64,000 bases of DNA from a virus (IMGVR_UViG_2867988698_000004:1-64000); one strand, 5' to 3'; counted from the first letter of the stretch, positions 14,911-60,393 are shown. Numbers and translations: made by a program. Notes: a model not told the origin generated them from the sequence alone.

Positions 14911-15024
14911 CGTCAACGGATCGTGGTGATCGGCTGTTGAACCGGAAGGCCCCGGCGGCCCCTCGCCCGACGCCCGACCGAAAACGAAGCCGGCCCCCGC
15001 GCCCCACACGTGAAAGGACGGTCC

Positions 15025-45471: not shown

Positions 45472-45511
45472 GCCCGGCCCCTGGCCAGCGGCGTCACCGA
45501 TCAGGCTAGCC
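45472..45511 (-). promoter_or_regulatory. Late-gene upstream motif
   Basis: Minus strand GGCTAGCCTGATC...GCCGCTGGCCAGGGGCCGGGC. Confidence 0.65.
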
Positions 45512-45941
45512 GCCCCGCCGGGGATCATCCCGCCCCAGGGGCCGGAGAAGATCAGCGTGGCCGTCCGCCGAGTAACGTTCGACGGAACAACAAATCCGCT
45601 ATTCCCACTCGTGGACCCGATTGCCGTATTTGCGGGTTTTGTCGCAGCAGGCGGCACCATGACATCCCTACCGGGTAAACGTGAGTTCCGAACGTCAAGA
45701 CCATTACAGCCAGGTTGCAGATTCTTAACTGCGCGCTTGTGACCTGCGGAAACTCCCCTGCACATGCAGGCGTACGATCGCCGTCTGCGATTCGCCCATC
45801 ATGTGGGCGTCTGGTGCCTTAGTCTCCGCATCGTCTGCGTCTTGTGACATGCCCGCCTGGTACCCCGCGCCAGGTGGTCATCGCCTGGCGCGGGCCGACC
45901 CGGACGCCCGTCAAGCGCCGGGGGAAGGGGGAACCGTCCGT

Positions 45942-46076
45942 ATGGGCGAGCCTCCCGACAAGAGGGAACCCGCTGACCCGGACGAGTGGCGATTCAGGCT
46001 GATCCTGGCCCTGCTGGAGCTTGTGCAGCTCCTGCTGTGGATCCTGGGTCTCTGGCTCGCCTCCGGGTGGCGGTAG
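45942..46076 (+). CDS. 44-aa single-TM peptide, candidate type I toxin
   Basis: GAAGGGGG RBS; RLILALLELVQLLLWILGLWL; flanking hairpins. Confidence 0.5.
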   Translation: MGEPPDKREPADPDEWRFRLILALLELVQLLLWILGLWLASGWR

Positions 46077-46297
46077 CGGCCTCGTAAGGGGCCGCGGGGC
46101 CTGGTACCGCAGCAGGATGGCCACCCAGCGGGTACCAGGCCCCACTCTTTTCACCGACGGCCGACAGGGTGTGATTCTCAGCCGTCAGCGTGTTGCATGG
46201 TAGGCCGGTCACCCGGAACAGTGCGGGACAACGCCAAAGAACCGCAAAGGTTGTTTGTGTCATGTGACCTTGACGCTACCGCCTACCAGAGCGGTGC

Positions 46298-47089
46298 CTA
46301 CCGCATCAGCGCAGACGGCGCATCCGACACCACCAGCGCCGCCTCGGGCCGCAGACCCGCCTCACGGTCGGCGACGACCTCCTCCTGTGGGGGCTCCGTC
46401 CAGAAGGTTTGCAGCCCCGTGGGGACCCCGACCATCCGCCAGGTGGCCAGGGTGGTGCGCAGCAGACCCCGCAGCGCCGGGTCGATCCCGGCGTCCAGGG
46501 GAACATGGTGGGGCCAGCGGGCCGTGCGCAGGGAAACCTGGTCCCGGTAGAACAGCGGGCCGAAGACCTCCTGCAAGCCCCGGCTGCCGACCATGGCGGA
46601 CCAGGCCCCCGGCGCGTCCGCGTCCGCCTGCCGCCGGTAGAAGCGGCCCACCGCACGGATGTCCGCCCACCACACCACCCACAGGCCGGCCCCCTGGCAC
46701 GGCCCCCAGTGGCAGGCGACCAGCGGCACCTCCGGGTCGCTCTCCCCCACCCCGGAGGGGCCCTCCCAGACCAGGAAGCCGGTACGGGTGGGCGGCTCGA
46801 TACCGCCGGCGGTGTGCAGGTCGGCGCTGGCGGCGACGGCCCGCGCGGTGGCCTCGGGCCGTAGGACGTACAGGGCGGCGTCGGCGATCCGCCGCGCTTC
46901 CTGCCGCGCGTGCTGCTGGTAGCGGCGGGCGGGCGGCAGGTCCTCCAGATCGGGTGGGACGTCGATGAGCCACGCCTGGTCGCTGTAGCCGCTCAGCCAC
47001 GCGCGGGCGGCGTGGCTCCTCAAAAAGCCGTAGGCGCCGCGCCGGAGTGTCCAGACGTTTCGCGTGGCGTCCTGGGATGTGGTGGTCAC
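46298..47089 (-). CDS. Hypothetical protein
   Basis: GTGA overlap; PPTRTGFLVWE motif. Confidence 0.55.
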   Translation of the reverse strand: MTTTSQDATRNVWTLRRGAYGFLRSHAARAWLSGYSDQAWLIDVPPDLEDLPPARRYQQHARQEARRIADAALYVLRPEATARAVAASADLHTAGGIEPPTRTGFLVWEGPSGVGESDPEVPLVACHWGPCQGAGLWVVWWADIRAVGRFYRRQADADAPGAWSAMVGSRGLQEVFGPLFYRDQVSLRTARWPHHVPLDAGIDPALRGLLRTTLATWRMVGVPTGLQTFWTEPPQEEVVADREAGLRPEAALVVSDAPSALMR

Positions 47090-48000
47090 AGGCCGCCGCC
47101 TCTCACGGCCTGCACGATCAGGAACCATGCGGCGTGCCCGGCCATGAGCGGGACCACCCTGCGGGTGCGCCAGTACAGCCAGACGTTGACGCAGGCCAGC
47201 GCCGCCATGGACAGCGCTGGCAGCCCCATGTAGCCGTGCGGTAGGACACGAATGACGGCGGCCAGCAGGTAGACCTGCCACAGCGGACGGTCGGCCGCGC
47301 CCAGCAGCAATACCACGGCGGCCAGGAGCATCTCCTCCCGGACCGCCGAGCCGATCGCCGTGACGACCAGCTCCGCCCCTTGGGAGAGGCCCAGGGCGGC
47401 GGCCTGGTCGCGGGCGGCGGTCAGGCCCGGTCCCGGCAGCAGCGACAGCCCGATGGCCAGCCACGCGGTGACCCCGGCCGCCAGGGCCGTGGTCATCCCT
47501 ACGGCCAGGGCCTGCAGGTGCCCGCCCGGCCCCGCCGCCCACCGCGGCCTGATCCCGACCATCTGGCGGGGCATGTGGTGGTGCTCGGCCACGTCCAGGC
47601 ATAGCCACACCGTGGCGACCGCCAGGGTGGCCGTGCCCACCACGCGGGCGGCCTCACCCGTGTGGGGCAGCAGCCCGGCCCCGAGCACGGCCAGCGCGAC
47701 CGCCGCCCAGATGCGGCGGCGTCCGTACAGCCACGCCAGATACGCCAGCCACAGGCCTGCGGCGATGAGGGACAGCGCGGCCGGGTTGACCGGCAGGGTG
47801 GGCATCTGCGCCCACCCGGCCAGGGCCGCGAACCGCAGGACGCCCTCCACCAGGTCCCAGCCGAGGAGGATGGTCAGCAGACCGGCCAACGGCGGCCACG
47901 CCAGCCGCAGGGACATCGGGGGCAGCCGCCGGTCCGGGGACGGCTGCAGCCACAGCAGCGGCTCCGGCGAGGCCGCCAGCCGAGGAGGAGATGCGGTCAA
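47086..48000 (-). CDS. CPBP/CAAX (Abi-like) intramembrane glutamic protease
   Basis: Multi-TM; AVREEM, LPHGY, PLMAGH motifs; start uncertain. Confidence 0.65.
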   Translation of the reverse strand: MTASPPRLAASPEPLLWLQPSPDRRLPPMSLRLAWPPLAGLLTILLGWDLVEGVLRFAALAGWAQMPTLPVNPAALSLIAAGLWLAYLAWLYGRRRIWAAVALAVLGAGLLPHTGEAARVVGTATLAVATVWLCLDVAEHHHMPRQMVGIRPRWAAGPGGHLQALAVGMTTALAAGVTAWLAIGLSLLPGPGLTAARDQAAALGLSQGAELVVTAIGSAVREEMLLAAVVLLLGAADRPLWQVYLLAAVIRVLPHGYMGLPALSMAALACVNVWLYWRTRRVVPLMAGHAAWFLIVQAVRGGGL

Positions 48001-48848
48001 CGGTCCTCTCCCGCCTTCACGGCCACCAGCCCGTACTGCAGGGTCGTGTTCCGCTGGGGCGTCTGCGCGTTCGGCCGCCACGCCCAGGTCGCGGTGACGC
48101 CCGGCTCCACCACGTGCACCCCGTCCGGGATCAGCCCTGCGACCTGCTCGTAGGTGCGGGGTTTGACCACCGGTCCGCCCCGGGCGACGAACTCCCGCGC
48201 CGCCTCCACCAGGCTGGGCTCGGGGGCGTCATGGGAGATCACCAGGGCGCTCCCCGGCGCAACGGCATCCATGTACTGCCACACGGTCCACGCCGCGTCC
48301 CCGTCGTCGGGGATGTGCGGCAGGACCGACGCCAGGATGACGGCGACCGGCTCCTCCAGGTCCAGGGTGCGCTCGGCCTGGTCTAGGACCCGCCGCGGGT
48401 CGGTCAGGTCCGCGTCGATGTACTGGCACACCCCGGGCGGGCTGCTGGTCAGCAACGCCCGCGCGTGGACCAGCACGACGGGGTCGTTGTCGACGTACAC
48501 CACCCGCGCGGTGGGGTTGACCTGCTGGGCGATCTGGTGGGTGTTGTCGTCGGTGGGCAGCCCGGTGCCCAGGTCCAGGAACTGGCGGATGCCGTGCTCG
48601 GCCGCCAGGCAGCGGACCGCGCGGCCGAGGAAGGCGCGGCCGTCCTGGGCCATGATCTGGATGTCGGGGAAGATCCGCTTGATCTTGTCGCCGGCCGCGC
48701 GGTCGACGGCGTAGTTGTCTTTGCCGCCCAGCCAGTAGTTCCAGATCCGCGCCGAATGCGGCACCGACGTGTCGATCCGCGGGGTGGGCGGCTGCTCCTC
48801 ACCGCCGGAGCCGCGGGGGATGTCATGGGGGATGTCGTGGGGGGTCAC
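47997..48848 (-). CDS. SAM-dependent methyltransferase (actinomycete Methyltransf_19 type)
   Basis: IDTSVPHSARIWNYWLGGKDNY, RQFLDLGTGLP, VYVDNDPVV. Confidence 0.9.
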   Translation of the reverse strand: MTPHDIPHDIPRGSGGEEQPPTPRIDTSVPHSARIWNYWLGGKDNYAVDRAAGDKIKRIFPDIQIMAQDGRAFLGRAVRCLAAEHGIRQFLDLGTGLPTDDNTHQIAQQVNPTARVVYVDNDPVVLVHARALLTSSPPGVCQYIDADLTDPRRVLDQAERTLDLEEPVAVILASVLPHIPDDGDAAWTVWQYMDAVAPGSALVISHDAPEPSLVEAAREFVARGGPVVKPRTYEQVAGLIPDGVHVVEPGVTATWAWRPNAQTPQRNTTLQYGLVAVKAGEDR

Positions 48849-48859
48849 CGCGGGGTCCT

Positions 48860-49732
48860 TTACACGAAGTCGTAGGTCTGGGACAGGTCGATGTGCTCGG
48901 GGTGCAGCTCGCAGTACAGGGCCCAGTGGTCGCTGGCACCCTGCGGGTCCAAGGGGCGGAAATTGCGGACCCCCGGCACGACGGGCCGGGTGGCCAGCAT
49001 CCAGTCCACGCGGATCCCGCCGTGCCCGGTGGGGGCGCACAGCGACTTGTCTCCGGTCATGAGAGCGAAGTGCTCGGCCAGGTCGGTCAGCCGCCCCTGG
49101 TGGATGACCCGCCCGACGATCCGGTCTCCCACCGGCGGCTGGTGGCCGGGGTGGGTGCGGCCGGCCAGGTTGTGGTCCTGGGCCTGGGACCAGTCCGGGT
49201 CCGGGTCCAGCCTCCAGTCGCGGGGCATGTGGTTGCCGTCCAACCCCACCAGCCCGATCCGCCGGTTACGGGTCACCCGCCCCAGGATGTGCTGCATCTC
49301 TATCGCTGCTGCGGCGGCGCTGTAGGGGGTCAGGTGAGCGGAGCAGAACGAGATCGGGAAGTCCACCCCCGGCACCCGCACCGTGGCGACCCCGAACCCG
49401 TACAGGGTGGCGTGGGACAGGGTGGTGTCCCAGAACCGCAGCTCCCACTCCTGGGGAACGGCCACCACGTTCCCGCCGGTCGGGGAGTCCGGGCGCAGCA
49501 GCCTCTTGCCCGGCAGGTGCTCTGCGATCATCTCCAGCAGGTCCGGCCGGTTGGGATCGTGGACCTCCTGCAGCAGCAGCACATCGGGGATGCCGGGCCG
49601 GTCCGGGTCGCTCGGGGTGAGGGCCGCGCGGCTGATGACGTCCATCAGCAGCGGCCACCGGTCCTGGCGCTCTCCGTTGGGGCCGCGGGTGCCCGCCCGG
49701 CAGATGTTCCAGCTCAGCACAGTGATCGGCAC
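48860..49732 (-). CDS. Endonuclease/exonuclease/phosphatase family protein
   Basis: VLSWNI, DVLLLQEV, SAHL, LDGN, RVDW, ASDH. Confidence 0.85.
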   Translation of the reverse strand: MPITVLSWNICRAGTRGPNGERQDRWPLLMDVISRAALTPSDPDRPGIPDVLLLQEVHDPNRPDLLEMIAEHLPGKRLLRPDSPTGGNVVAVPQEWELRFWDTTLSHATLYGFGVATVRVPGVDFPISFCSAHLTPYSAAAAAIEMQHILGRVTRNRRIGLVGLDGNHMPRDWRLDPDPDWSQAQDHNLAGRTHPGHQPPVGDRIVGRVIHQGRLTDLAEHFALMTGDKSLCAPTGHGGIRVDWMLATRPVVPGVRNFRPLDPQGASDHWALYCELHPEHIDLSQTYDFV

Positions 49733-49764
49733 AGATCACGCTCCGTTCTCGGGGTTGGGGTGTT

Positions 49765-50559
49765 TCATTTGCGGGCGACGGCGGCCCACTCGTCCACGTC
49801 ACCCGCCTGCAGCACGTGCCCGTCCTGCCGCCACCGGCAGGTGGGCACCAGCCCGGGTTCCACGACGGCCAGGCCGTCCAGGAACCGGCCGATGGTGCGG
49901 GGCAGCCGCAGCTTGATCAGGGGGCGGGCCCGCCGGTTCCACAGCCGCGCCACCTGCTGCATCAGCTCGGGCTTGCTGACGGCGGTGATGTGGCTCAACG
50001 CCAGGTGGCTGCCGGGCGGCATCCCGGCCATGACCTCCGCCACGACGCTGCGGGCCAGGGCGTCATCGCCGAGGTGCGGCAACACCCCGCACATCAGCAC
50101 CCCCACCGGCCGGTCCGCCTCCAGCAGCGGGACCGTCTCCTCCACCAGCACCCGGGGGGCGGCCAGATCGGCGGCCACCACATGGCAGCCGGCATCGGTC
50201 AGCAGCGCCCGGCCGTGCATGACCACCAGCGGGTCGTTGTCGACGTAGACCACCCGCGCGCCGGGCGCGTAATGCTGGGCGACCTCGTGCGTGTTGGTGA
50301 TGCACGGCAGCCCGGCCCCCACGTCCACGAACTGCCGTATCCCGGCCTCCTCCACCAGGTAGCGGACGGCGCGGATCATGAACTGCCGCCGCCAACGGCC
50401 CAGGTCGACCACACCGGGGAACACCTCGGCGATGCGCTTACCCAGAGCCCGGTCGGCCTCGTAGTGGTCTTTGCCACCCAGCCAGTAGTCCCACAACCGA
50501 GCCGGATGCGGCGTGACGGGATCGAACCCGTCCAGGTCCTCGTCTTCCTCGTAGCTCAT
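49765..50559 (-). CDS. SAM-dependent methyltransferase (second paralogue)
   Basis: PHPARLWDYWLGGKDHY, RQFVDVGAGLP, VYVDNDPLV. Confidence 0.9.
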   Translation of the reverse strand: MSYEEDEDLDGFDPVTPHPARLWDYWLGGKDHYEADRALGKRIAEVFPGVVDLGRWRRQFMIRAVRYLVEEAGIRQFVDVGAGLPCITNTHEVAQHYAPGARVVYVDNDPLVVMHGRALLTDAGCHVVAADLAAPRVLVEETVPLLEADRPVGVLMCGVLPHLGDDALARSVVAEVMAGMPPGSHLALSHITAVSKPELMQQVARLWNRRARPLIKLRLPRTIGRFLDGLAVVEPGLVPTCRWRQDGHVLQAGDVDEWAAVARK

Positions 50560-50568
50560 GGTGCCCTT

Positions 50569-51153
50569 TCACCTGTCGGGGGATCGTCGTGTCTGCTCCA
50601 TGAGCCGCCGACGGACGGCCGCCCGCTGCGTCGGGGTGGCGTCCTCAGCCAGGGCGGCGACCACCGTGCTCCACAACCCGGGAGGCAACCCGGCGTCCTC
50701 CTCGGGGGTGGGGGGAGGGTCCGGCAGCTCCACCACGCCCTGGTCCTCTCCCAGGCCCGGGGGCAGCTCGACCGGCTCGGGGAGGGAAAGGTTCTCCAAC
50801 GCCGCCAGGACGTCCTGATCCCCCCAGCGGGTGTCGGGCACCTCGATCACCAGGCCGGGATCCGGGAGGCGGCCCAGCAGCCCCGGCAGGTCCTCGTCCT
50901 GGCCCTCGGTGGGCCACAGCCGGAACGCCCCGTACAGGGCCCGGCAGATGTCGCCGGCGACGGTGCCGCTGCCGCGCAGGTAGCCCAGCTGCAACGCGGT
51001 GATCCGCGTGATCTGCGGGCTGGCGAGATGCCGTTCGATGTCCTGACGCACCCGGGCCAGCACGTCCAGGGTGGCGTCGAACCCGGCCAGCAGCGCCGGG
51101 TGATCGTGGCGGGCCCGGTCACGGATGGCCTCGATGGTCTCACCGGATCTCAC
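50569..51153 (-). CDS. Hypothetical protein
   Basis: GAAGGAG RBS; GTGA overlap. Confidence 0.55.
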   Translation of the reverse strand: MRSGETIEAIRDRARHDHPALLAGFDATLDVLARVRQDIERHLASPQITRITALQLGYLRGSGTVAGDICRALYGAFRLWPTEGQDEDLPGLLGRLPDPGLVIEVPDTRWGDQDVLAALENLSLPEPVELPPGLGEDQGVVELPDPPPTPEEDAGLPPGLWSTVVAALAEDATPTQRAAVRRRLMEQTRRSPDR

Positions 51154-51425
51154 CAGGGCTCCTTCTCGTCTATAGCCGGTTTCCAGGTGCCGTCCGTGCG
51201 CCGGCCCGTGTGCTCGGCCAGCTCGCGATGCGCCGCCGCCACCAGCTCGGCCGCCCACCGCCGCCAGGTCGCACCGACCGCATGGGAGGCGGTCCACGGC
51301 CCGAACACGGCGATCAGCGCCCGCAGCCACGCCACCCGCACCAGCACCATGTCGGCGGGGTTGGGAGGCGCGGCGGCCCCGGCGATGTCCAGGGGGTTGT
51401 GCTCAGGGCCGCCGCGCCGGCTCAG
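51150..51425 (-). CDS. Hypothetical protein
   Basis: In operon; start uncertain. Confidence 0.4.
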   Translation of the reverse strand: MSRRGGPEHNPLDIAGAAAPPNPADMVLVRVAWLRALIAVFGPWTASHAVGATWRRWAAELVAAAHRELAEHTGRRTDGTWKPAIDEKEPW

Positions 51426-51754
51426 CACCCCGCCGTGGGCGGGGAGGTCTCTCGCGGGTCGGAGGGGGTCAGCAACTGCTGAACGTGCCGGACGGCGTCC
51501 TGCAGGTCGCTGGCCGCGCACACCCAGAACGGGGCTCCGGGCTGACAGAGCCACACCCGCTGGTCGGATGTCCGGCAGAGCGCCCACAACTCCGCCGTTC
51601 TGCCGTCCCGGGCGGCGGTCAGACCCAACGGCCGGACGGTGACCTCATGGCCCCGCTCGCGCAGCAGCCGGGCCAGGTCCTCCACCACGGCCTGCCGCAG
51701 GTCGCCGTCCAGCCCCTCGGTGGGGGCCGGGCCCAGCACCCCCAGCCCGGTCAT
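51422..51754 (-). CDS. Hypothetical protein
   Basis: ATGA overlap. Confidence 0.5.
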   Translation of the reverse strand: MTGLGVLGPAPTEGLDGDLRQAVVEDLARLLRERGHEVTVRPLGLTAARDGRTAELWALCRTSDQRVWLCQPGAPFWVCAASDLQDAVRHVQQLLTPSDPRETSPPTAGC

Positions 51755-52155
51755 GCGGCCATCCCGGCGGGCAGCCGCTTGATCTCGTCGTACAGGTCAC
51801 CGGCCGCGCCGGGCAGGCCACCGGCCCCCCACTCCTCCACCCGGAGAACGTCACCGTCCCGGCGCATCCCGGCCAGCAGCCGGTCGTAGTAGTAGGCGCC
51901 CCCCATGCCCAGATGGACGCGGTGCAGCACCCCGACCGCCCCGGCCGGGGAGTCCTGCATGGCCTCCACCAACCGGCGGACGGCGCGGTCACGGTCGTCG
52001 CAGACGCCCACCGCACCCAGACGCGGGGTCTCGCCGGGCTCAACGACCGTCCAGGAGAACATCCCGGTGGGACCCGGCAGGCCCGGCTGCCGGTTAAGGA
52101 CGGTGGTTGTCGCCGGGAGCAGGCCCGCGCCGGTTCCGCTGGTAGGTTCTGGCAT
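51751..52155 (-). CDS. Hypothetical protein
   Basis: GAAGGAG RBS; GAVGVCDD..RA motif. Confidence 0.55.
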   Translation of the reverse strand: MPEPTSGTGAGLLPATTTVLNRQPGLPGPTGMFSWTVVEPGETPRLGAVGVCDDRDRAVRRLVEAMQDSPAGAVGVLHRVHLGMGGAYYYDRLLAGMRRDGDVLRVEEWGAGGLPGAAGDLYDEIKRLPAGMAA

Positions 52156-52217
52156 AGCCACGGCTCCTTCGTGGTCAGGCCCCGGGGCCCCGGTGCGCGC
52201 ACACCGGGCCGGGGTCG

Positions 52218-52457
52218 CTAGCTGTCGGGGGACGTTCCGGGATCCGGCTGCTGGGCGGCCTGGAGCGCGTCGGCCAAGTCCTGGATGGTGTCGGCGGTCA
52301 GTTCGGCGCCGGGGTCGTTCCATTTACGGGCCTTCCATGGCCCGTGTTTTCCACCGGCCTCCAATACGCGCCATATATCCCATTCGTGCCCGTATTCGGC
52401 GATCAGCCGCTCGGCGGGGCTGGGCTGAGGTGCGTCCACTGCCATGACCAGCTCCAT
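52218..52457 (-). CDS. Small protein, first gene of the leftward cargo operon
   Basis: GGGGAG RBS; L..EY..W.IWR...W.AR...L.ADT...L...L. Confidence 0.55.
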   Translation of the reverse strand: MELVMAVDAPQPSPAERLIAEYGHEWDIWRVLEAGGKHGPWKARKWNDPGAELTADTIQDLADALQAAQQPDPGTSPDS

Positions 52458-52570
52458 GACCGTCTCCGACTCCCCCGGCTTGTTCAATGCCGTTGAATGC
52501 CGTTGACGGTACGAAGCGTCACCGCCCCGTAACAGCGATGGGGCGTGGCCGTTTGGCCACGCCCCATCCG

Positions 52571-52595
52571 GAAGGGCTACGTTACGTATCCCTTC
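52571..52595. promoter_or_regulatory. Palindromic operator A of the XRE island
   Basis: GAAGGGCTACGT-T-ACGTATCCCTTC, near-perfect palindrome. Confidence 0.65.
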
Positions 52596-53823
52596 ACATG
52601 TTGATGCCCATGAAGTCGGCCAATTCCCGGGTGCGCTGGCTGGGCATCCGCGGCCGCGCGTCCATCAGCTCCCGTACCGCGTCGCGGGCGTACTGCTGGT
52701 AGCGCAGCCAGTGCGGGTGCTCCCGCCGGATGGCCGTCAGGATGTCCTCCGCCTTCTCCACGTTCCCCGTGCGCGCATGAGCGACGGCAAGGTCCAGGCG
52801 GTGCCGGTCCCACCCGGACGTGTTGCCCCGTCCCACGTCACGGGGGATTCCCGCGGCCAGCTCCAGGGCCTTGTCGGGGCGGTCGTCCAGCATCTCGATC
52901 TCCACGGCCAGCATGGGGCCGTTCATGGGGCCGAACGCCTTGTGCCCCGACAGGTCCTGGTACTGGCGTCCCAGCCGGGTGCCCGCAGTGGAGGCGATCG
53001 AGGCGTACTCCCGGGCCTCCTCCATGCGGTTGTTGCGGGCAGCTGCGGCGGCGGCGCGCAGGAACATGTAGCCCCACCCGCACAGCTCATCCGGGGTGGC
53101 CTTTGACATCTTGGGCTCGATCTGGTCGGCGGTGGCCACACACAGCTGCTCAACCTCCGACAGCCTTCCCTGCCGCATCATCGCCCATGCCTGGCTGCAC
53201 ACCGCCGCCGCCGCCAGCGGGGTGTGGCCGATCTCCAGGGCGTCCCGCAAAGAGGCGTGCAGCGCGATCAGCGCCAGGTCATGCGCGCGGATCTGGATGA
53301 GGTAGCGGCCGGTCAGCCCGGTGATGTCCGCCCGAAGCCGCAGCGCCTCCCGCCGGTCCGGCCCCTCGCTGTCGAAGTAGTCCACGTGGTGATGGGCGCT
53401 GCGCACGAGCGCCGGCATCATCTGCGCCAGGTCGTCATACCGGTCCCCGTGGTAGGCCGCCGCGACGGAGGAGATGGCCTGCTTCAAGCTGCGCAGGTCC
53501 ACCAGTTCCGCATCCGCCGTCCCGTACAGGGGCTTGCCCGCCAGCCCGATCGGGGGGTTGATGGCCGACCGCATGTCCGCCAGCACCGTGTCGTCCACGG
53601 CGGCCTCGACGGGTTCCGGGGAGGACGCGGACACGAACCAGACGGTCCGCACTCCTAGCGCCTTGGCCAGCTTGTGGTAGGTCTCCATCCGCGCCGTGCC
53701 GCCCTGCTCGATTTTCTTGATCACGGCGAGGCTGAGACCGCTGTGTTCAGCCAGCTCTTCCTGGGTCATCCCCCGGCTGCGCCGGAGGTTACGCACGCGG
53801 TCGGAAATGGTACCTTCCTCCAT
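52594..53823 (-). CDS. XRE-family HTH regulator with large helical (TPR-like) C-terminal domain
   Basis: VRNLRRSRGMTQEELAEHSGLS...IKKIEQG...LAKALGV. Confidence 0.85.
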   Translation of the reverse strand: MEEGTISDRVRNLRRSRGMTQEELAEHSGLSLAVIKKIEQGGTARMETYHKLAKALGVRTVWFVSASSPEPVEAAVDDTVLADMRSAINPPIGLAGKPLYGTADAELVDLRSLKQAISSVAAAYHGDRYDDLAQMMPALVRSAHHHVDYFDSEGPDRREALRLRADITGLTGRYLIQIRAHDLALIALHASLRDALEIGHTPLAAAAVCSQAWAMMRQGRLSEVEQLCVATADQIEPKMSKATPDELCGWGYMFLRAAAAAARNNRMEEAREYASIASTAGTRLGRQYQDLSGHKAFGPMNGPMLAVEIEMLDDRPDKALELAAGIPRDVGRGNTSGWDRHRLDLAVAHARTGNVEKAEDILTAIRREHPHWLRYQQYARDAVRELMDARPRMPSQRTRELADFMGINM

Positions 53824-53910
53824 AGGCCCTGCACCTTTCTTGATGTTCCGTCACCATCAGGCTACGGCGCAGGGCCTAATTACGTTAGGGATAGGCCATG
53901 ACTTCTCCTC

Positions 53911-53934
53911 AGGGGCTACGTTCCGTATCCCTTT
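53911..53934. promoter_or_regulatory. Palindromic operator B of the XRE island
   Basis: AGGGGCTACG-TTC-CGTATCCCTTT matches operator A. Confidence 0.65.
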
Positions 53935-54044
53935 GGCGGGCGGCGTCCGCGAACGGCCACGAACCGCACCTTCACCCGTGGTGCGGCTCGGGTCACAGTG
54001 AAGGGCGTCGTAGGGAACCCCGAGCCCTCCCTGGGAGGCCGCCA

Positions 54045-55202
54045 GTGAAACGGCTGATCGTCGATACGCACGCCGCCTCGTGCTACTTCCGGACCTCGGT
54101 GCCCGGTGACGGCCGTAAGGCCCTGGTGCAGATCACCGAGCGCTGCAACCTGCATTGCGCGCACTGCTTCGTGTCCTCCACCCGGGAGGGCCTGGACATG
54201 GCCTATCAGGATCTGGTGGAGATGGTGGTGCCGCGGCTGCTGGCGGCCCGGGTGCGTCGCATCACCCTGACCGGCGGTGAGCCGTTCGCCCACCCGGACC
54301 TGCTGCGCCTCTGCCGACACCTGACCGGGCTGGGCCTGCCGGTGGGCATCTGCAGCAACGCCACCTTGATCAGCGACGAGCAGATCGCCGAGCTGGCCGC
54401 GCTGGGCGGCGTGCACGTCAACGTCAGCCTGGACGGCTTCTCTGCCGACAGCCACGGCAAGTTCCGCGGGAACCGCAGCTCCTTCCAGATCACCGTGGAC
54501 ACCATCCGCCGCCTGGCGGACGCCGGGCTGCTGCAGGGGCTGCTGTCGACCCCCAACGCCCTGACCTTCCCCCGGGAGTTCGAGGAGCTGTGCGCGTTCG
54601 CCGTCGAGGTCGGCGCGGAGTACGTGCTGATGAACCCGCTGTCGTCCATGGGGCGGGGGGTCAAGAGCAAGGACCGGATGGCGGCCGACACTGCCGTCAT
54701 GGACGAGATCCGCCGCCTCACCGACCGGTTCCGCGGCCAGGGCGTCGACGTGGTCCACATCCGCTTCCCCAACGGCGGCCAGGAGGGCAAGCCGCTGAGC
54801 GGCTGCGATGCCGGGAAGCTGATCTACGTGTTCGCCGACGGCGAGGTCGCCGTGTGCCCCTACCTGGTGTTCGCCGCCCGCACCCCCCACTCCCAGCATC
54901 CCGACAGCGACTTCCTGGTCGGCAACATCTTGGACCCCGCCATCGCGGACACGGCGGTGGCGGATGCGCTGGACGGCTACGACACCGGCCGTCTGGCCAT
55001 GGGCGTCAACCCCACCTGCACCTCCTGTGGCATGAACAGCCGGTGCGGGAAGGGCTGCCCGGCGGCCGTCATCGCCTCCGGCGGCCGCATCGGCGGCGTG
55101 GACACCGGCCAGTGCCCCGTCACCGGCCCTGCTCCCGCCGGTCCGCTGCTGCAGATCGGCCGCCCCCCGACCCGCCCGGCCCGACCGGCTGGGTCGGCAT
55201 GA
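54045..55202 (+). CDS. Radical SAM enzyme with SPASM domain
   Basis: CNLHCAHC, TGGEPF, VSLDG; C-terminal GC...DGEVAVCPY...CTSC.....CGKGC; GGAGG RBS before GTG. Confidence 0.9.
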   Translation: MKRLIVDTHAASCYFRTSVPGDGRKALVQITERCNLHCAHCFVSSTREGLDMAYQDLVEMVVPRLLAARVRRITLTGGEPFAHPDLLRLCRHLTGLGLPVGICSNATLISDEQIAELAALGGVHVNVSLDGFSADSHGKFRGNRSSFQITVDTIRRLADAGLLQGLLSTPNALTFPREFEELCAFAVEVGAEYVLMNPLSSMGRGVKSKDRMAADTAVMDEIRRLTDRFRGQGVDVVHIRFPNGGQEGKPLSGCDAGKLIYVFADGEVAVCPYLVFAARTPHSQHPDSDFLVGNILDPAIADTAVADALDGYDTGRLAMGVNPTCTSCGMNSRCGKGCPAAVIASGGRIGGVDTGQCPVTGPAPAGPLLQIGRPPTRPARPAGSA

Positions 55203-55813
55203 CCGCGACCGGCCGGTTCCTGGTCCTGGAGGGCCCCAACGGCGTGGGCAAGACCACCACCGCCGCCGCGCTGGCCGACCTGCTGCGCAGCCGCGGGGAC
55301 CGCGTCCACGTGACCGGTGAGCCCTCGACCGCTCCGCTGGGCCGCCTGATCCGCGCCCACGAGGCCGAGCTGACCGGGCGGGCGCTGGCGCTGGCGGTGG
55401 CCGCCGACCGCAGCCACCACCTGGACACCGAAATCGTCCCCGCCCTGGCCGCCAGCGCCACGGTGATCTGCGACCGGTTCATCCCCTCCTCCCTGGTCCT
55501 CCAGCAGCTGGACGGCCTGGACCCGCGGGAGGTCTGGTCCTACAACGCCGCGCTGCGGCCGATCCCGGACATCACCGTCTACCTGATCACCGCCCCCGCT
55601 ACGATCGGGGCCCGGCTCGCCCAGCGGCCCCGCCGGTCCCGGCTGGAACAGGCCGGCAGCCCGGACCGGGAGCTGGCCCTGTACCAGCAGGCACGGCGCT
55701 TCCTGGACGGGCAGGGATGGCGGCAGATCACGATCGACTGCCGGGACCTGCCCGCAGATCAGGTGGCCGCGCGGATCCTCGCTCACCTGCCCCGAAAGGA
55801 CCCGGCACCATGA
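55199..55813 (+). CDS. tmk: Thymidylate (dTMP) kinase-like protein
   Basis: FLVLEGPNGVGKTT, TGEPS, AADR, VICDRFIPSS, PDITVYL; ATGA overlap. Confidence 0.85.
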   Translation: MTATGRFLVLEGPNGVGKTTTAAALADLLRSRGDRVHVTGEPSTAPLGRLIRAHEAELTGRALALAVAADRSHHLDTEIVPALAASATVICDRFIPSSLVLQQLDGLDPREVWSYNAALRPIPDITVYLITAPATIGARLAQRPRRSRLEQAGSPDRELALYQQARRFLDGQGWRQITIDCRDLPADQVAARILAHLPRKDPAP

Positions 55814-56655
55814 CCCACGGCAGCACGCGGGACACGCGGGAGGTGTCGGTGCTGACCCTCAACATCGGCGCCGCCGCCCGCCCCCGCGCCGAGCAGCTCC
55901 TCACCTGGCTGGTCGACGCCGGCCACGATGCCGGCCACGACGTCGTCCTGCTGACCGAGACCAGCGCCGGACCCGGCACCGCCTACCTGCTGGACCACTT
56001 CGCCCGCGCCGGCTACACCATCGTCAACACCCCCGACCACGGTGACCGCGGCGCGGCGCTCATCACCCGCATCCCCGTCCTGGACCAGCCGGTGCAGTTC
56101 AAGACGGTGACCATCCCCGGGCGGGTGGCCGCCGCCGTGCTGGACACCCGGCCCCGGCTGTGCGTGGCCGCCGTGTACGTGCCCAGCCGCGACCGCAGCA
56201 CCGACAAGACCGACCGCAAACACCGGTTCCTGACCTCGCTGCAGGACGCGCTGGCGACGCTGCCGGACCACCAGCGGGACGGGCTGCTGCTGGGCGGGGA
56301 CTACAACGTCATCGCCCGCACCCACCAGCCGTCCCTGCCCGGATTCCTGCCGTTCGAGTACGACTTCCTCGACCACCTGCACGCCCTGGGGCTGGTGGAC
56401 GTCCACGACCACCATCACCCCGACGCCCCGCAGCCGCACTCCTGGATCGGGCGGACCGGCGACGGCTACCGCTACGACTACCTGCACCTCGCCCGGCCCC
56501 TCGCAGGCCGGATCACCGGCTGCGCCTACCTGCACACCACCCGCCAGAACCGGCTGACCGACCACGCCGCCGTCACCGCGACCCTGCGCCTGGACCAAGT
56601 CCAGCGGCTTCCGGTCCAGGCCGTCACCGCCGACGACGACCTCGCTCTGTTCTGA
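55810..56655 (+). CDS. Exonuclease III-like EEP hydrolase
   Basis: LTLNI, LLTET, AVYVPS, GGDYN, YRYDY, LTDH. Confidence 0.85.
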   Translation: MTHGSTRDTREVSVLTLNIGAAARPRAEQLLTWLVDAGHDAGHDVVLLTETSAGPGTAYLLDHFARAGYTIVNTPDHGDRGAALITRIPVLDQPVQFKTVTIPGRVAAAVLDTRPRLCVAAVYVPSRDRSTDKTDRKHRFLTSLQDALATLPDHQRDGLLLGGDYNVIARTHQPSLPGFLPFEYDFLDHLHALGLVDVHDHHHPDAPQPHSWIGRTGDGYRYDYLHLARPLAGRITGCAYLHTTRQNRLTDHAAVTATLRLDQVQRLPVQAVTADDDLALF

Positions 56656-56693
56656 CCCTCCCCTGACCTCACCGAAACGGAAGTCCAGCTCGT

Positions 56694-57500
56694 ATGGCCG
56701 ATCGTGCTGCGCTGATGGAACAGTGGTTCGCCACCGCCGCCCGCGACCTGCACCTGACCGTCTGCGGGGAGGCGGTGCGCGGGGTCGGTGACCGGACCCT
56801 CAGCGGCCCCGCCGCCACTCCCCGCGGGGACGCCGTCTGGCTCCGCGTGCTGGCGGTCCCGGAAGACCTGGCACACGGCCCTGTGTGGGAGGGGCCGGTC
56901 ACCTCCCAGGAGGTCACTGGCGTGTACCGGCCACGGCTGATGCACTGCCTGACCTGGGCCGAGCACGGGCATGTGGTCCGGGCGGAGGTTTGGAAACGGA
57001 TCATCGAGCCGGCCTGTGCCGCGCACGAGACCCTGACGAACGATCCGCGGCTGCCCGCCGGATGGTGGGAGCGGCTGCACGCCTCCCTGGACCGGCTCGC
57101 CGAGCATCCCACCCAGCGGATGCCCCGCCCTCCGGAGCAGATCACCGTGGCGCTGCGGCAGGCGTACGGGCCGGACGTCCCCACGCGGGTGGAGCGGTGG
57201 GTGACGCAGCACGGGGACCTGCGCTGGTGCAACCTCACCCGTACCACCCCCTACCTGCTGGACTGGGAGTTGTGGGGGCTCGCCCCCGCCGGCACCGACG
57301 CCGCCACCCTGTACTGCACCAGCCTCCTGGTCCCCCACGTGGCCGCAGAGGTCTACCGGCAGTTCCGCCATGTGCTGGACAGCCCGGACGGCCGGATCGC
57401 GCAGCTGTGCGTGTGCATCCAGCTCACCCGGCACCCGGACTGCGGGCCGCTGCGGGAGCCGTTGACCCGGCTGGCGTATCGGCTCCTCACCTACGCCTGA
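56694..57500 (+). CDS. Aminoglycoside phosphotransferase-like kinase
   Basis: HGDLRWCNL, LLDWELWG, DAATL. Confidence 0.75.
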   Translation: MADRAALMEQWFATAARDLHLTVCGEAVRGVGDRTLSGPAATPRGDAVWLRVLAVPEDLAHGPVWEGPVTSQEVTGVYRPRLMHCLTWAEHGHVVRAEVWKRIIEPACAAHETLTNDPRLPAGWWERLHASLDRLAEHPTQRMPRPPEQITVALRQAYGPDVPTRVERWVTQHGDLRWCNLTRTTPYLLDWELWGLAPAGTDAATLYCTSLLVPHVAAEVYRQFRHVLDSPDGRIAQLCVCIQLTRHPDCGPLREPLTRLAYRLLTYA

Positions 57501-57515
57501 CCAGCCGCAGGGCGG

Positions 57516-58064
57516 TCAGGCGTGGGACAGGGCGGCGCGGACCAGGGAGTCGTAGGTGTCGCTGGTCCGCTCCAGCCCCACCTCCTCGCCCAGCGACCGC
57601 GCCCACTCGTCCAGCTCGGCCTGCACCGCCTCCCCCGACTCCTGCGGCCTGACCACCCGCTCCAGCTCCACGAAACAGCCGGCGTGCTCGACCTCGTCCA
57701 CGCAGATGCCGATCTCTCCCAGGCGGCCGGTGCGGCGCCGTTTGACGATCCGCACGGTCGGCCGCCAGCCCATCAGCTGTAGCGCCCGCGCCATCTCCTC
57801 CCGGTCGGCCACGGTGGTCTCGTGCTCCAGGCACGCCATCTCGTTGTCCACCGGCTGCTTGACCGTGAACAGGTGGACCCCGTCCTGGGTCCGCAGCCGC
57901 GCGAACGCGATCCCCACCTTGGAGTCCCCGTACGACCAGGACGCCGGCGCGAACGCCTGGTCGTCCTGCAGCACCGGGAGGGACAGCAGTACGCCGCGGG
58001 CCGCCAGCGCCTTCTCCAACGCCGCCACGTCACCGGCCCGGTATTTGACCTCGATCTCCTGCAC
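57516..58064 (-). CDS. CYTH / class IV adenylate cyclase-like protein
   Basis: EIEVK, ARLR, FTVK, IVKRR, DEV...FVELE. Confidence 0.85.
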   Translation of the reverse strand: MQEIEVKYRAGDVAALEKALAARGVLLSLPVLQDDQAFAPASWSYGDSKVGIAFARLRTQDGVHLFTVKQPVDNEMACLEHETTVADREEMARALQLMGWRPTVRIVKRRRTGRLGEIGICVDEVEHAGCFVELERVVRPQESGEAVQAELDEWARSLGEEVGLERTSDTYDSLVRAALSHA

Positions 58065-58157: not shown

Positions 58158-58574
58158 TCAGCGCTCGACCACCGGGTAGGGCACCGTTTGTCGCAGTGCC
58201 CGTACCAGCCACTGGTCTCCGGGCATCCCGCGGACCTGCCGGGCGTAGACGATCCGGCCGCCGACCTCGAACCGCAGGAACTGGGCGCGGACCGGGCGGA
58301 TGGGGCGGCCGCGCGGCCCGTAGATGCCGGTGCCCTCGTGCAGCCACCAGCCGACCTTCGAGGGTGTCCAGACCCGGCCGATCACGAGGGTGCCGCGGGT
58401 GCGGACGCTGCTGGTGATGCTGGCCCGGGTCGTCCCCGTGCGGACCCGGATGTTCAGCTTGGCCCGGGTCTCGGTGCGGCGGGTCAGGGCGGTGACGTGG
58501 TCGTGCACCGGGCCGCCGGGCTGCCGCAGCAGCCGATCGAGAGCGGCCCGGTCCAGCCGCACCCTGGCCGCCAT
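58158..58574 (-). CDS. HK97 gp10-like neck/tail-completion protein
   Basis: VRTG..RASI, HEGTGIYGP, IRP...LRF, V.G....WL..AL. Confidence 0.7.
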   Translation of the reverse strand: MAARVRLDRAALDRLLRQPGGPVHDHVTALTRRTETRAKLNIRVRTGTTRASITSSVRTRGTLVIGRVWTPSKVGWWLHEGTGIYGPRGRPIRPVRAQFLRFEVGGRIVYARQVRGMPGDQWLVRALRQTVPYPVVER

Positions 58575-58575
58575 C

Positions 58576-58968
58576 TCAGCCTCCTCGCCTGCCCGCACGG
58601 CCTGAGCGGGCGGGGCGGCGCGGCGCCGCTTGGGTGCGGGCGGCGTTCCTGGCGCTGGGCGGGTCCACCCGCCGCGCGGCGCTCGTTCGTACCACCCGCG
58701 GAATCGGGACGGGCTCCCCGTCCAGGGTGGCCAGGGAGAGTTTGCCGTCTGCGGCAGCGCCCAGCACGGCGGGGGTGACGTCCAGTTCCTCGACGTGCCC
58801 GCGGCGCTGGCCCAGGACGTTGGTCTGCCAGGTGGCGATGACCCGCTCCGGCATCCCCTCCCCGCTACCCGGCTCGGAAGCGGCGACGGTGGTGGCGGGA
58901 TCGGTGGGGGCGGTGGGGTCGGTGGAGCTGGCCGGGGCGGTGGGCTCACTGCTCATGATCATGAGCAT
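58576..58968 (-). CDS. Small phage structural-region protein
   Basis: Adjacent to the gp10-like gene; start uncertain. Confidence 0.4.
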   Translation of the reverse strand: MLMIMSSEPTAPASSTDPTAPTDPATTVAASEPGSGEGMPERVIATWQTNVLGQRRGHVEELDVTPAVLGAAADGKLSLATLDGEPVPIPRVVRTSAARRVDPPSARNAARTQAAPRRPARSGRAGRRGG

Positions 58969-58998: not shown

Positions 58999-60393
58999 TC
59001 AGGTGATGCCGCAGCGGGCGGCCAGGCCCCGCAGTGGTGGGCTGGTGCGCCCGGACAGCAGCAGCCCGGACACCAGATCACGGACGGCGGGGCGGGCGTG
59101 GGTTTCCTCCGGTGCCGCGCGTTCGGCGGCCAGCAGCGCCCGCAGGCATTCCTCGCGGCGCCCCCACTGCGCGAACGCTCGGGCCATGTCGGTGTGGTAG
59201 CGGGCGCGGCGTTCGACGGTGGGCAGGCTGCCGGGGTGGATGGACCGGCCGGCGGCGATGGCGGCTCCGGGGTCCCCGGCGGAGTACTCGGCGGAGATCC
59301 GGTGCAAGGCGACTGCTGCGGCGCTGAATCCGCCGCCGTGGTCCCGCAGCAGGGTGCCGCCTCGGGCGGCCCCCAGGCGGCCGGCGATGGCGGCGGCGTC
59401 GTCGGTGAGTTCCCGCATCCCGGACCGGTCGCCCTGCTTGGCGAGGGTGTAGGCGGCCGACATGAGGAGCAGCCCCCGCTCAGCGGTGTGGGCGGGATCG
59501 TCGGCGCGTAGCCCGATCGTGTCGGCGGCCGACAGCACGAGCGAGGCGGCCTGGTCGTACCAGCCGGCGCGGCGAGCGAGGATGGCCAGGTTCCGGGCGG
59601 CCTCGGCGGCGGTCAGGGGCTGGTCGGCTGCGCTGGCCAGCAGCCGGGCCCGATCGGCGGCCATCCACCCCAGCTGCGGATCATCGAGTTTGATGAGCAT
59701 CCGGGTGGCCAGGATGTAGGTCTGCGCCAGCACGGCCGCCGCCTCGCGGTCATCGCGGTCATCGGCGGTGGTGGCGTGGGCGTGGGCGAGCAGGCGGGGC
59801 AGGACGTCGGCCAGCCGCCCGTACCGGCAGGCGTGAAAATCGCTCAGCGCTGTGGTGAGCAGCGCGCGCAGCCGGTCGACCGGCAGCGGCGCCGGCGGCT
59901 GGGGGTGCAGGCCGAGCATCGTGTCCCGCAGGCGGCCGACCAGCAGTTCCCCCGTGTCCACCGGCTGAACGGTCACCGGGGCGGGCAGGCAGGGCCCGAC
60001 CGCGGCAGCAGCCGTCACCGCCAGGTTGGCCAGCAACTGCCGTCGCCGCACCGGATCGTCACCGCCCTCCCGACCGCCGCCTCTGGCCACAGTAACCCCA
60101 CCGGCTGCCGCCGTCCCGGCGGCACCACCGGCAGGTCCCGGGGCGGGCGCCAGGCCCAGCAGATGCGGAGGGATCTGGAGGGCGTCGGCGAACCGCCGCA
60201 GCACCACCACATCGGTGAGCGGGGCCACGCCGCGTTCGTAGCGGGAGACCTGGGACGCCGAATACCCGCACAACGCGCCGAGCTGGGCCAGCGTGAGCCG
60301 TCGCGCCTGCCGTGTAAGCCGCACGATCGCGCCGACGTCCCCACTGGCCCGCGCCTGACGCATCTCTGGCGTCGACCACAGCTGATCGTCCAT
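58999..60393 (-). CDS. Second XRE-HTH regulator with TPR-like helical domain
   Basis: RQARRLTLAQLGALCGYSASQVSRYERG; DPVRRRQLL; ERRARY..D.ARA. Confidence 0.85.
   Translation of the reverse strand: MDDQLWSTPEMRQARASGDVGAIVRLTRQARRLTLAQLGALCGYSASQVSRYERGVAPLTDVVVLRRFADALQIPPHLLGLAPAPGPAGGAAGTAAAGGVTVARGGGREGGDDPVRRRQLLANLAVTAAAAVGPCLPAPVTVQPVDTGELLVGRLRDTMLGLHPQPPAPLPVDRLRALLTTALSDFHACRYGRLADVLPRLLAHAHATTADDRDDREAAAVLAQTYILATRMLIKLDDPQLGWMAADRARLLASAADQPLTAAEAARNLAILARRAGWYDQAASLVLSAADTIGLRADDPAHTAERGLLLMSAAYTLAKQGDRSGMRELTDDAAAIAGRLGAARGGTLLRDHGGGFSAAAVALHRISAEYSAGDPGAAIAAGRSIHPGSLPTVERRARYHTDMARAFAQWGRREECLRALLAAERAAPEETHARPAVRDLVSGLLLSGRTSPPLRGLAARCGIT

Follow-up and report, generated by a model that had tools for sequence, protein, structure and literature searches.

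A recurrent radical SAM/SPASM, kinase and endonuclease/exonuclease/phosphatase cassette beside a phage-type XRE regulator in a provirus record

The window analyzed here is a stretch of 64,000 nucleotides (nt), IMGVR_UViG_2867988698_000004:1-64000, which makes up the beginning of an IMG/VR provirus record of 118,999 bp. The window has a G+C content of ~72%. At positions 46298-58064 it carries an island in which the gene of an XRE-family regulator separates two outward-facing gene sets. The right one encodes a radical S-adenosylmethionine (SAM) enzyme, a thymidylate-kinase-like (TMK-like) protein, an endonuclease/exonuclease/phosphatase (EEP) and a CYTH protein, and the left one methyltransferases and a CAAX protease. 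This arrangement raises the question of whether both arms belong to one regulon and one pathway, as proposed in the original prediction made from the sequence, or whether the right arm is a unit of its own. Since lists of open reading frames (ORFs) are uninformative at such a G+C content, the genes were placed using a third-position G+C frame plot.

The answer given here, to which we assign a probability of about 0.55, is that the right arm represents one copy of a nucleotide cassette which is self-contained, occurs widely and matches no curated family, with a regulation and a role in conflict as proposed below. The assignments of the radical SAM/SPASM enzyme, the TMK-like kinase, the EEP, the CYTH protein, the XRE regulator, the PF04672 methyltransferases and the CAAX protease all hold, as each of them has a Pfam or motif match.

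Composition and conservation of the cassette

The gene for the radical SAM/SPASM enzyme is located at 54045-55202 on the plus strand. It starts with GTG, has the ribosome-binding site GGGAGG 7 nt upstream and codes for 385 amino acids. The protein matches PF04055 (5.4e-24; 85.7 bits, cut-off 29.5), and its CxxxCxxC motif, CNLHCAHC, is invariant in 17 sequences, together with an extra N-terminal cysteine. SPASM domains follow the seven-cysteine pattern Cx9-15Gx4C ... Cx2Cx5Cx3C ... C. Of the SPASM cysteines, C254, C271, C328, C334, C338, and C357 do not vary across the same 17 sequences, and C325 is kept in at least 90% of them. The Pfam SPASM model is absent from the Pfam hits of the enzyme. 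The NCBIfam SPASM families align to its residues 78-402, all of them under their curated cut-offs, and for all 25 families listed of the 69 matched the enzyme stays below the cut-off, the best being a mycofactocin maturase with 90.3 bits against 265. The closest solved structures by sequence are SkfB (2.8e-16) and BlsE (4.1e-16). By fold, a structure model with a predicted local distance difference test (pLDDT) value of 68.7 matches BlsE, SkfB, SuiB, PqqE, DesII, and anSME, with viperins ranking 23 and below. Because the core starts at about residue 27, there is no room for an N-terminal recognition domain.

The second gene (55199-55813, plus strand) encodes a thymidylate-kinase-like nucleoside monophosphate (NMP) kinase of 204 amino acids, which matches PF02223 (3.4e-28; 99 bits, cut-off 27). 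Its start codon overlaps the stop codon of the radical SAM gene in an ATGA at 55199-55202, and its own stop codon overlaps the start codon of the EEP gene in another ATGA at 55810-55813, so that the coupling of the three genes by such overlaps, as originally predicted, is present at both junctions. The cassette kinase is an extra paralog in 3 genomes, where it scores 80-103 bits against 163-170 bits for the canonical Tmk (G001, G003); besides its cassette copy, G002 holds a further TMK-family match that is split over two frames. Compared to the canonical Tmk, the cassette kinase has EGPNG instead of EGGEG in the P-loop, has lost the aromatic residue before ADR and has LQ in place of YQGAGR. 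The changed positions (the acidic residue of the P-loop, the aromatic residue before ADR and the YQ loop) are presumably contacts to the sugar and base of deoxythymidine monophosphate (dTMP).

The third gene (55810-56655, plus strand) codes for an ExoIII-like EEP of 281 amino acids, which matches PF03372 (2.8e-09; 37.5 bits, cut-off 24.5). At least 95% of 74 sequences retain the catalytic motifs N, E, D-x-N, and DH, and the ExoIII structure 6lpm was matched in the PDB with 1.3e-08. The protein stays under the cut-offs of both ExoIII equivalogs (TIGR00195, 51.7 bits against 182.55; TIGR00633, 44.1 against 99.05).

The CYTH gene (57516-58064; 182 amino acids), encoding a triphosphate-tunnel metalloenzyme, had been counted to the right-arm set. 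Its family is clear (PF01928, 4.1e-17; 63 bits, cut-off 23.2), but it lies on the minus strand and is convergent with the radical SAM operon. The ExExK motif, EIEVK, is conserved in 41 sequences, and the score for class IV adenylate cyclase is under the cut-off (TIGR00318, 51.7 bits against 57.95). Between the EEP and the CYTH genes lies an insert specific to the window, a gene of 268 amino acids (56694-57500, plus strand) that had been called a kinase. No family match was obtained for it in Pfam, NCBIfam, PADLOC, or PHROG, but a structure search in the ESM Atlas gave a template modeling (TM) score of 0.73 to three clusters whose aligned part qualified for a family name, two of them PF01636 (APH) and one PF04655 (APH_6_hur); in the closer clusters (TM 0.85-0.95), APH is found in at most 18% of the members or in none. 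By the ESM Atlas only, the protein looks like an APH-like kinase fold.

The conservation of this gene set was analyzed in relatives of the radical SAM enzyme. One genome per species was scanned, 219 relatives were found and the best 80 were kept, with 71 loci at an identity of at least 45%. Of these, the 64 loci having at least 2.8 kb of downstream sequence form the basis of the counts for the trio and the fourth slot. The TMK and EEP genes are located directly 3′ of the radical SAM gene in 61 of the 64 loci, one locus has the EEP gene only and two have neither. Furthermore, one fusion of the radical SAM enzyme and the kinase was found (P0042, 556 amino acids), which carries PF02223; no fusion longer than 674 amino acids was found, which is weak evidence. 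The neighborhood check on homologs of the radical SAM gene thus shows that these genes do co-occur, and the idea that the four enzymes form one functional set acting on nucleotides is supported by the conserved trio, the fusion and the replacement in the fourth slot described below. The composition, for which no described counterpart had been known, is not unique to this locus; it is a recurrent module in many bacteria.

The fourth slot is occupied by a CYTH gene within 3.5 kb of the radical SAM gene in 38 of the 64 loci (36 convergent, 2 co-directional). In other loci the CYTH gene lies further away (3), or a NUDIX (5) or a MazG-like gene (1) is found. A MazG-like gene after the EEP gene is also present on the provirus records L084 and L086, and on a 336-kb linear plasmid of Streptomyces (NZ_CP109010.1) the four genes are annotated as 'radical SAM protein', 'dTMP kinase', 'endonuclease/exonuclease/phosphatase family protein' and 'MazG-like family protein'. 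In one genome (G124), the sole CYTH homolog found is the one adjacent to the cassette, and in three genomes whose cassette is without CYTH, no CYTH homolog was found using the query from the window. CYTH, NUDIX, and MazG-like proteins are three unrelated families which hydrolyze nucleoside triphosphates. That all three fill one slot is the strongest argument for a pathway which handles a nucleotide.

The genes flanking the cassette vary by lineage. Among 60 nearest upstream neighbors there are eight XRE-type helix-turn-helix (HTH) genes, eight second EEP genes, six LysR genes and five histidine kinase genes, and the regulators beside the cassette differ between XRE types, LysR, and XRE-M78. 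The XRE regulator of the window and the 268-amino-acid gene are absent from all 80 loci, save for XRE-like regulators with 25-27% identity in L033 and L040. Left-arm genes are found beside the cassette in none of the 80 loci, save for hits to the PF04672 methyltransferase in two (L004, L047). No exporter, resistance or further tailoring gene is conserved next to the cassette.

The gene of the radical SAM enzyme is distributed patchily. Among 121 species sampled from each of two families, 6 of the first and 8 of the second yielded a match, and the gene occurs in Actinomycetota of several orders as well as in metagenome-assembled genomes (MAGs) labeled Gemmatimonadota, Saccharibacteria, Symbiobacteriaceae, and Dormiibacterota. 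The cassette is 50-70% identical across many actinomycetes and is also present in several other phyla. The trio of radical SAM, TMK-like and EEP genes was detected on four other distinct IMG/VR records. In L083, with a G+C content of 45%, it lies between an integrase and STAND NTPase on one side and holin/endolysin genes on the other. The radical SAM protein of the window is also recorded on a 7.4-Mb contig.

A variant of the cassette was observed in Solirubrobacterales (L052, L055-L061, L063, L071), in which a second, divergent EEP gene lies upstream and no CYTH, NUDIX, or MazG-like gene is present; most of the Solirubrobacterales copies have a regulator consisting of XRE and M78 peptidase, and a membrane-anchored protein of 274 amino acids without family match. 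In Acrocarpospora macrocephala two full cassettes are located on different contigs (L013, L017), both 67-68% identical to the radical SAM query. Some copies are apparently decaying, because their genes are split or interrupted: the CYTH gene of L024 is in three pieces, the radical SAM gene of L068 is in two pieces which are 3 kb apart, and further cases are L070, L071, and L072.

The regulator, its small partner gene and the palindromes

The XRE-family regulator (52594-53823, minus strand; 409 amino acids) combines an HTH_3 domain (3.8e-12) with an alpha-helical C-terminal domain. Over its full length it matches the phage family phrog_5823 (2e-108), its residues 4-408 being aligned to positions 5-403 of the 404 in the profile. 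Full-length homologs with 38-43% identity are encoded in 57 actinophage records, e.g., by Streptomyces phage Daudau (gp51) and Thermobifida phage P1312 (gp052), and 19 of 401 genomes of the class contain homologs at E ≤ 1e-30. The tetratricopeptide repeats that had been assigned to the regulator were not confirmed, as TPR_19 reaches 19.5 bits against a Pfam cut-off of 25.

Two exact copies of the palindrome GGGCTACG-N3-CGTATCCC flank the regulator gene. Site 1 is located at 52574-52592, 1 nt 3′ of the XRE stop codon, and site 2 at 53913-53931, inside the 221-nt spacer between the divergent XRE and radical SAM genes. The twin palindrome of the original prediction is therefore real and exact in both copies; the positions given there, 52571 and 53911, are off by 2-3 nt (52574 and 53913). 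In the whole 118,999-bp record no other copy with up to two mismatches was found, and a control with the reversed pattern gave 0. With up to three mismatches the pattern is not significant alone in a shuffle test (1.11 matches expected, 5 of 100 shuffles reaching 4), and the half-site alone is not enriched (6 found, 3.84 expected). What speaks for the palindrome is thus the exact match of 16 bases at two positions separated by 1339 nt, together with the similarity outside the core, which extends to a 40-nt direct repeat at 78% or, when each site is read toward its downstream gene, to 49-nt arms at 71% identity. The distance from the center of site 1 to the ATG of the following small gene is 126 nt, and that from the center of site 2 to the start codon of the radical SAM gene is 123 nt.

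The small gene downstream of the regulator (52218-52457, minus strand) codes for 79 amino acids from the ATG at 52457, has the ribosome-binding site GGAG and is without family match in Pfam and PHROGs. Between it and the regulator gene, 5 nt beyond site 1, a hairpin with a perfect 14-bp stem is located at 52537-52568 on the minus strand, which is likely the terminator of the XRE gene. The 81 nt of 52520-52600, comprising the palindrome and the hairpin, have a folding energy of -49.7 kcal/mol (z = -6.1). A separate terminator scan gave nothing useful near the palindrome sites.

The same order is found beside relatives of the regulator. In L138 (G539), which holds the second-best match with 54% identity, the stop codon of the regulator is followed by GGGTACGTTCCGTACCC, a strong hairpin and a small gene whose product is 35% identical to that of 52218-52457, the distance from the site to the ATG being 122 nt. 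The XRE relative of L138 (7816-9028) matches in two frames, with residues 2-44 and 48-408, which points to a frameshift or a sequencing error. L139 and L140, with regulators of 50% and 45% identity, have co-varying palindromes of the form CCACG-N3-CGTG(G) and a similar small gene; in L139 the hairpin equivalent to 52537-52568 comes after the palindrome, as in L138. In phage Daudau, gp51 is divergent from the adjacent serine integrase gene and has two small genes downstream, and the spacer 3′ of gp51 contains palindromes of the ACCACGCTGCGTG type. Because the order is kept in L138 and the palindromes co-vary in L139 and L140, the native unit is considered to consist of regulator, palindrome, hairpin, and small gene.

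As palindromes of the type ACG-N3-CGT recur between the regulator and the small gene in these relatives, the palindrome is a credible operator, to which the XRE protein would bind. A second copy of this putative operator region is placed ahead of the radical SAM gene in the window. The small gene and the cassette are therefore probably under the same regulator. Of the single regulon claimed in the original prediction, shared cis-elements that control both the radical SAM operon and the small gene (52218-52457) are plausible from these copies of the operator region, but one pathway spanning both arms is not supported. Partial copies of the palindrome, TACGTTAGGGAT and GAAGGGCGTCGTAGGGAAC, were observed at 53881-53892 and 54000-54018 in the intergenic region between the XRE and radical SAM genes, and a CGTA(A/C)CGT-like element lies ~35-40 nt 5′ of the small-gene start in both the window and L138. 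These may be secondary binding sites. The regulatory part of the locus would be a compact case in which a phage operator region was duplicated and thereby captured a cargo operon.

The left arm and the surroundings of the island

The left arm (46298-52100, minus strand) consists, according to the frame plot, of several small ORFs in addition to the following genes. Two methyltransferase genes, both PF04672, are located at 49765-50559 and 47997-~48800, a CAAX protease gene (PF02517) at 47086-~47950 and a further, unassigned gene at 46298-~47000, all of them on the minus strand. Between the two methyltransferase genes lies a gene for 290 amino acids (48860-49732, minus strand), which had been called the left-arm EEP. 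This candidate was rejected, as no match of any kind was found in Pfam, NCBIfam, PADLOC, PHROGs, or the PDB at E ≤ 1 and the hhalign probability is 1.5%. The two PF04672 genes share stretches of 76-83% nucleotide identity (48447-48762 and 50197-50512) at a constant offset of 1750 nt, which indicates a local duplication around the 290-amino-acid gene. In the relatives of the XRE regulator only the small gene follows the palindrome, and no homolog of another left-arm gene was found there. The methyltransferase and CAAX genes further left appear to be unrelated cargo outside the conserved cassette.

The island is located where it had been predicted, between a tail assembly chaperone gene (PF23781, 44981-45451) and a Neck1/gp10-like match (58158-58949). 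To its left, a tape measure protein is encoded at 38885-43795 with minor tail proteins nearby. Between the chaperone and the island, at 45500-46300, the frame plot shows neither a clear coding signal nor a major tail gene, and the structural module of the prophage appears to be broken there. No convincing att-like direct repeats border the island, and a megablast search of 36000-60500 against phages gave a 37-nt match only.

Right of the Neck1/gp10-like match, a second phrog_5823 regulator was identified (58999-60393, minus strand; 1e-53), which shows 27% identity over 174 amino acids to the regulator at 52594-53823 and lies directly upstream of a 130-amino-acid ORF and the gp10/Neck1-like gene. 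It is followed on its right by non-phage cargo, namely a PhyH-family dioxygenase (60570-61298, plus strand; 1.7e-27) and a protein with a protein kinase domain (61927-62721, plus strand; 1.6e-11). The left part of the window encodes an FtsK/SpoIIIE (TraB-like) protein (9487-11871, plus strand; phrog_31069, 1.3e-73) and an anti-restriction-like protein (15010-15870, plus strand; phrog_7245, 1.1e-16), and resembles a conjugative element of actinomycetes more than a phage. From this gene content it follows that the prophage which holds the island is broken and is itself part of a mosaic of mobile elements.

Possible function and comparison with known systems

We infer the chemistry and the biological role of the cassette from its composition. 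The triphosphatase, i.e., CYTH in the window and NUDIX or MazG-like proteins elsewhere, would make or clear a monophosphate, the radical SAM enzyme would alter the nucleotide and the dedicated kinase would re-phosphorylate the altered NMP. The EEP could act as a phosphatase or as a nuclease which removes the product, or damage caused by the product, from the DNA. The pathway would yield a non-canonical (deoxy)nucleotide serving in conflicts with phages or other genomes. Since NUDIX or MazG-like proteins can stand in for CYTH, the fourth enzyme is predicted to hydrolyze a nucleoside triphosphate. The product might be an antiviral nucleotide, a precursor for DNA modification, a free nucleoside or a repaired nucleotide. 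A role in conflict is favored because of the patchy distribution, the mobile contexts and the stress- or phage-type regulators, which are XRE-M78 in Solirubrobacterales and phrog_5823 in the window. A more specific version is tentative: the cassette may be an immune or warfare system with a radical SAM enzyme other than viperin, in which the SPASM enzyme makes a non-canonical nucleotide, the TMK-like kinase charges it, the pyrophosphatase and the ExoIII-like enzyme supply the substrate or protect the nucleic acids of the host, and a prophage has brought the system under a sensor of the phage repressor type, by which it would be switched on along with the phage decision circuit.

Several observations weigh against a self-contained nucleotide cassette with this regulation and role. 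The solved relatives of the radical SAM enzyme include the peptide maturases SkfB, SuiB, and PqqE, and all of them are distant, with TM scores of ~0.56-0.62 on the query. The TMK-like kinase passes the dTMP kinase cut-off (TIGR00041, 99.3 bits against 83.25) and may simply be a dTMP kinase. In 17 of the 64 loci no fourth gene was detected with the three queries used (CYTH, NUDIX, MazG-like), and the CYTH gene is not co-transcribed with the operon, because it is usually convergent. In PADLOC-DB v2.0.0, the radical SAM enzyme gave a partial match to pVip only and the TMK-like kinase weak ones to PDC-M51B and VakA, with none for the EEP and CYTH proteins. A search of 50,697 deposited phage genomes gave no close homolog of the radical SAM enzyme, large 'provirus' records may extend into flanking host DNA, and the synteny around the cassette is conserved in Micromonospora, as would be expected if it is inherited vertically in this genus. 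On the regulatory side, the same palindrome was found in L138 (L089/L138) only among 16 loci with XRE homologs, and no matching motif was found beside the related regulators of L033 and L040. Moreover, site 1 is upstream of a strong hairpin, which is an odd position for a repressor site, and no sigma-70-like promoter was found in a scan that is poorly suited to actinomycetes.

Other explanations of the locus have to be weighed against these data. According to the original prediction, both arms form one regulon and one pathway that makes, phosphorylates and removes a modified nucleotide sensed by the XRE-TPR protein. Ahead of both outward gene sets lies the same palindrome, with similarity over 40-49 nt around it, and the left-arm genes share a strand and are separated by short gaps, which would fit this. 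However, the left-arm genes, the XRE gene and the 268-amino-acid gene do not travel with the cassette (the exceptions in the 80 loci being 2 PF04672 and 2 XRE-like genes), the regulators adjacent to the cassette vary by lineage, in relatives of the regulator the palindrome is followed by no left-arm homolog other than the small gene, and the supposed left-arm EEP has no family match. Such a two-arm pathway is therefore improbable. The cassette could also produce a nucleoside natural product, where the kinase provides a phosphorylated intermediate, the radical SAM enzyme rearranges its sugar or base, and the triphosphatase and the EEP release a nucleoside analog acting as antibiotic or signal. 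Among solved proteins, BlsE, a radical SAM enzyme of nucleoside antibiotic biosynthesis, matches best by structure and, tied with SkfB, by sequence, two slots are held by hydrolases with the potential to remove phosphates, and most hosts are actinomycetes. Phosphorylated intermediates and Nudix or phosphatase tailoring are known from the polyoxin/nikkomycin, tubercidin, and oxetanocin pathways. Against this speak the lack of a conserved exporter, resistance or tailoring gene nearby, the resemblance of the EEP to ExoIII nucleases and not to small-molecule phosphatases, and the presence of the cassette in MAGs of Saccharibacteria, Gemmatimonadota, and Dormiibacterota and in a prophage with 45% G+C, so that we regard a natural product as rather unlikely.

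A sanitation of the nucleotide pool combined with DNA repair would likewise make use of all four activities: the triphosphatase would remove a damaged deoxynucleoside triphosphate, the radical SAM enzyme would reverse the lesion in the monophosphate, the kinase would recycle it and the ExoIII-like enzyme would clear DNA ends. The kinase score above the dTMP kinase cut-off fits this, as does the position of some relatives next to XRE-M78 (ImmA/IrrE-type) regulators, which respond to DNA damage in other systems, and MazG and NUDIX are classical house-cleaning families. Yet a housekeeping repair function would hardly be expected in just 6 and 8 of the 121 species sampled from each of two families and in mobile contexts, the substrate-site motifs of the kinase differ from those of the resident Tmk, and we know of no radical SAM repair enzyme of the SPASM type; there is thus little to be expected from this explanation. 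Finally, the radical SAM/SPASM enzyme could cross-link a peptide, as in systems for ribosomally synthesized and post-translationally modified peptides (RiPPs), with the kinase and the hydrolases being accessory or unrelated. Most of the characterized SPASM enzymes act on peptides, and the best matches include SkfB, SuiB, PqqE, and maturases of sactipeptides and mycofactocin. But when 657 ORFs of 12-90 amino acids from the 700 bp upstream of 72 radical SAM genes were clustered, none was shared across lineages, the largest cluster comprising 10 loci of one order; downstream ORFs and those shorter than 12 amino acids were left out. The enzyme has no room for a recognition domain, no RiPP recognition element or PqqD-like family was found among the cassette neighbors (no dedicated search with models of such elements was made), and a fusion of radical SAM enzyme and kinase exists. 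A RiPP-type system is accordingly very improbable. The nucleotide cassette with a role in conflict remains the favored reading.

No description of this gene set was found in the open-access literature in PMC and bioRxiv, where supplementary lists of candidate defense systems could name the cassette. In PMC7159879, the passages on SPASM enzymes and phage defense deal with peptide systems only.

The known RiPP maturases SkfB, SuiB, PqqE, and MftC share the radical SAM core and the SPASM cysteine pattern with the enzyme of the window. They differ from it in that the cassette has no precursor peptide, recognition domain or partner among the genes found, and that its scores with the curated models are far under the cut-offs. 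BlsE, the cytosylglucuronate decarboxylase of blasticidin S biosynthesis (PDB 7vob), ties with SkfB by sequence, is the best fold match (1.9e-13, TM score on the query 0.58) and has a nucleoside as its substrate. However, the identity is 22%, the NCBIfam model for BlsE gives 64.9 bits against 400 and the gene context is different.

With regard to regulation, the Daudau regulator of phrog_5823 adjoins an integrase gene, whereas that of the window faces the radical SAM operon with an added second operator region. The layout resembles AimR-AimP (arbitrium/RRNPP), which also comprises a regulator of ~400 amino acids with an HTH and a helical C-terminal part, a small downstream gene and a palindrome. 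In contrast to that system, the small protein (79-95 amino acids) shows no signal peptide by eye, and the TPR match is under the Pfam threshold. The pair is not assigned to this group.

Phage pathways for modified bases, e.g., dCTPase, dCMP hydroxymethylase, and dNMP kinase in T4 or MazZ, PurZ, and DatZ in S-2L, are those which the logic of the cassette most likely follows, by analogy. Both combine a nucleoside triphosphate pyrophosphatase with an enzyme that alters the monophosphate and a dedicated NMP kinase, and some cassettes contain a MazG-like protein. The modifying enzyme of the cassette is of the radical SAM/SPASM type and not a relative of thymidylate synthase or PurA, and the cassette is mostly chromosomal.

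The pairing of a radical SAM enzyme with a nucleotide kinase and the patchy, partly prophage-borne distribution are shared with the prokaryotic viperins (pVips) and their kinases, and the pVip models of PADLOC match the radical SAM core of the window enzyme with 4.1e-17. This match covers residues 78-189 on model positions 5-111 of 257, and because it is partial, an assignment of the enzyme as viperin was rejected. The enzyme carries a complete SPASM domain, which adds two clusters, and is accompanied by an EEP and a triphosphatase, whereas viperins, to our knowledge, have no SPASM domain. So far, the SPASM class has mainly been associated with peptides and cofactors. If a modified nucleotide is made by the cassette, it would represent a second kind of radical SAM nucleotide chemistry in microbial conflict, beside that of viperin.

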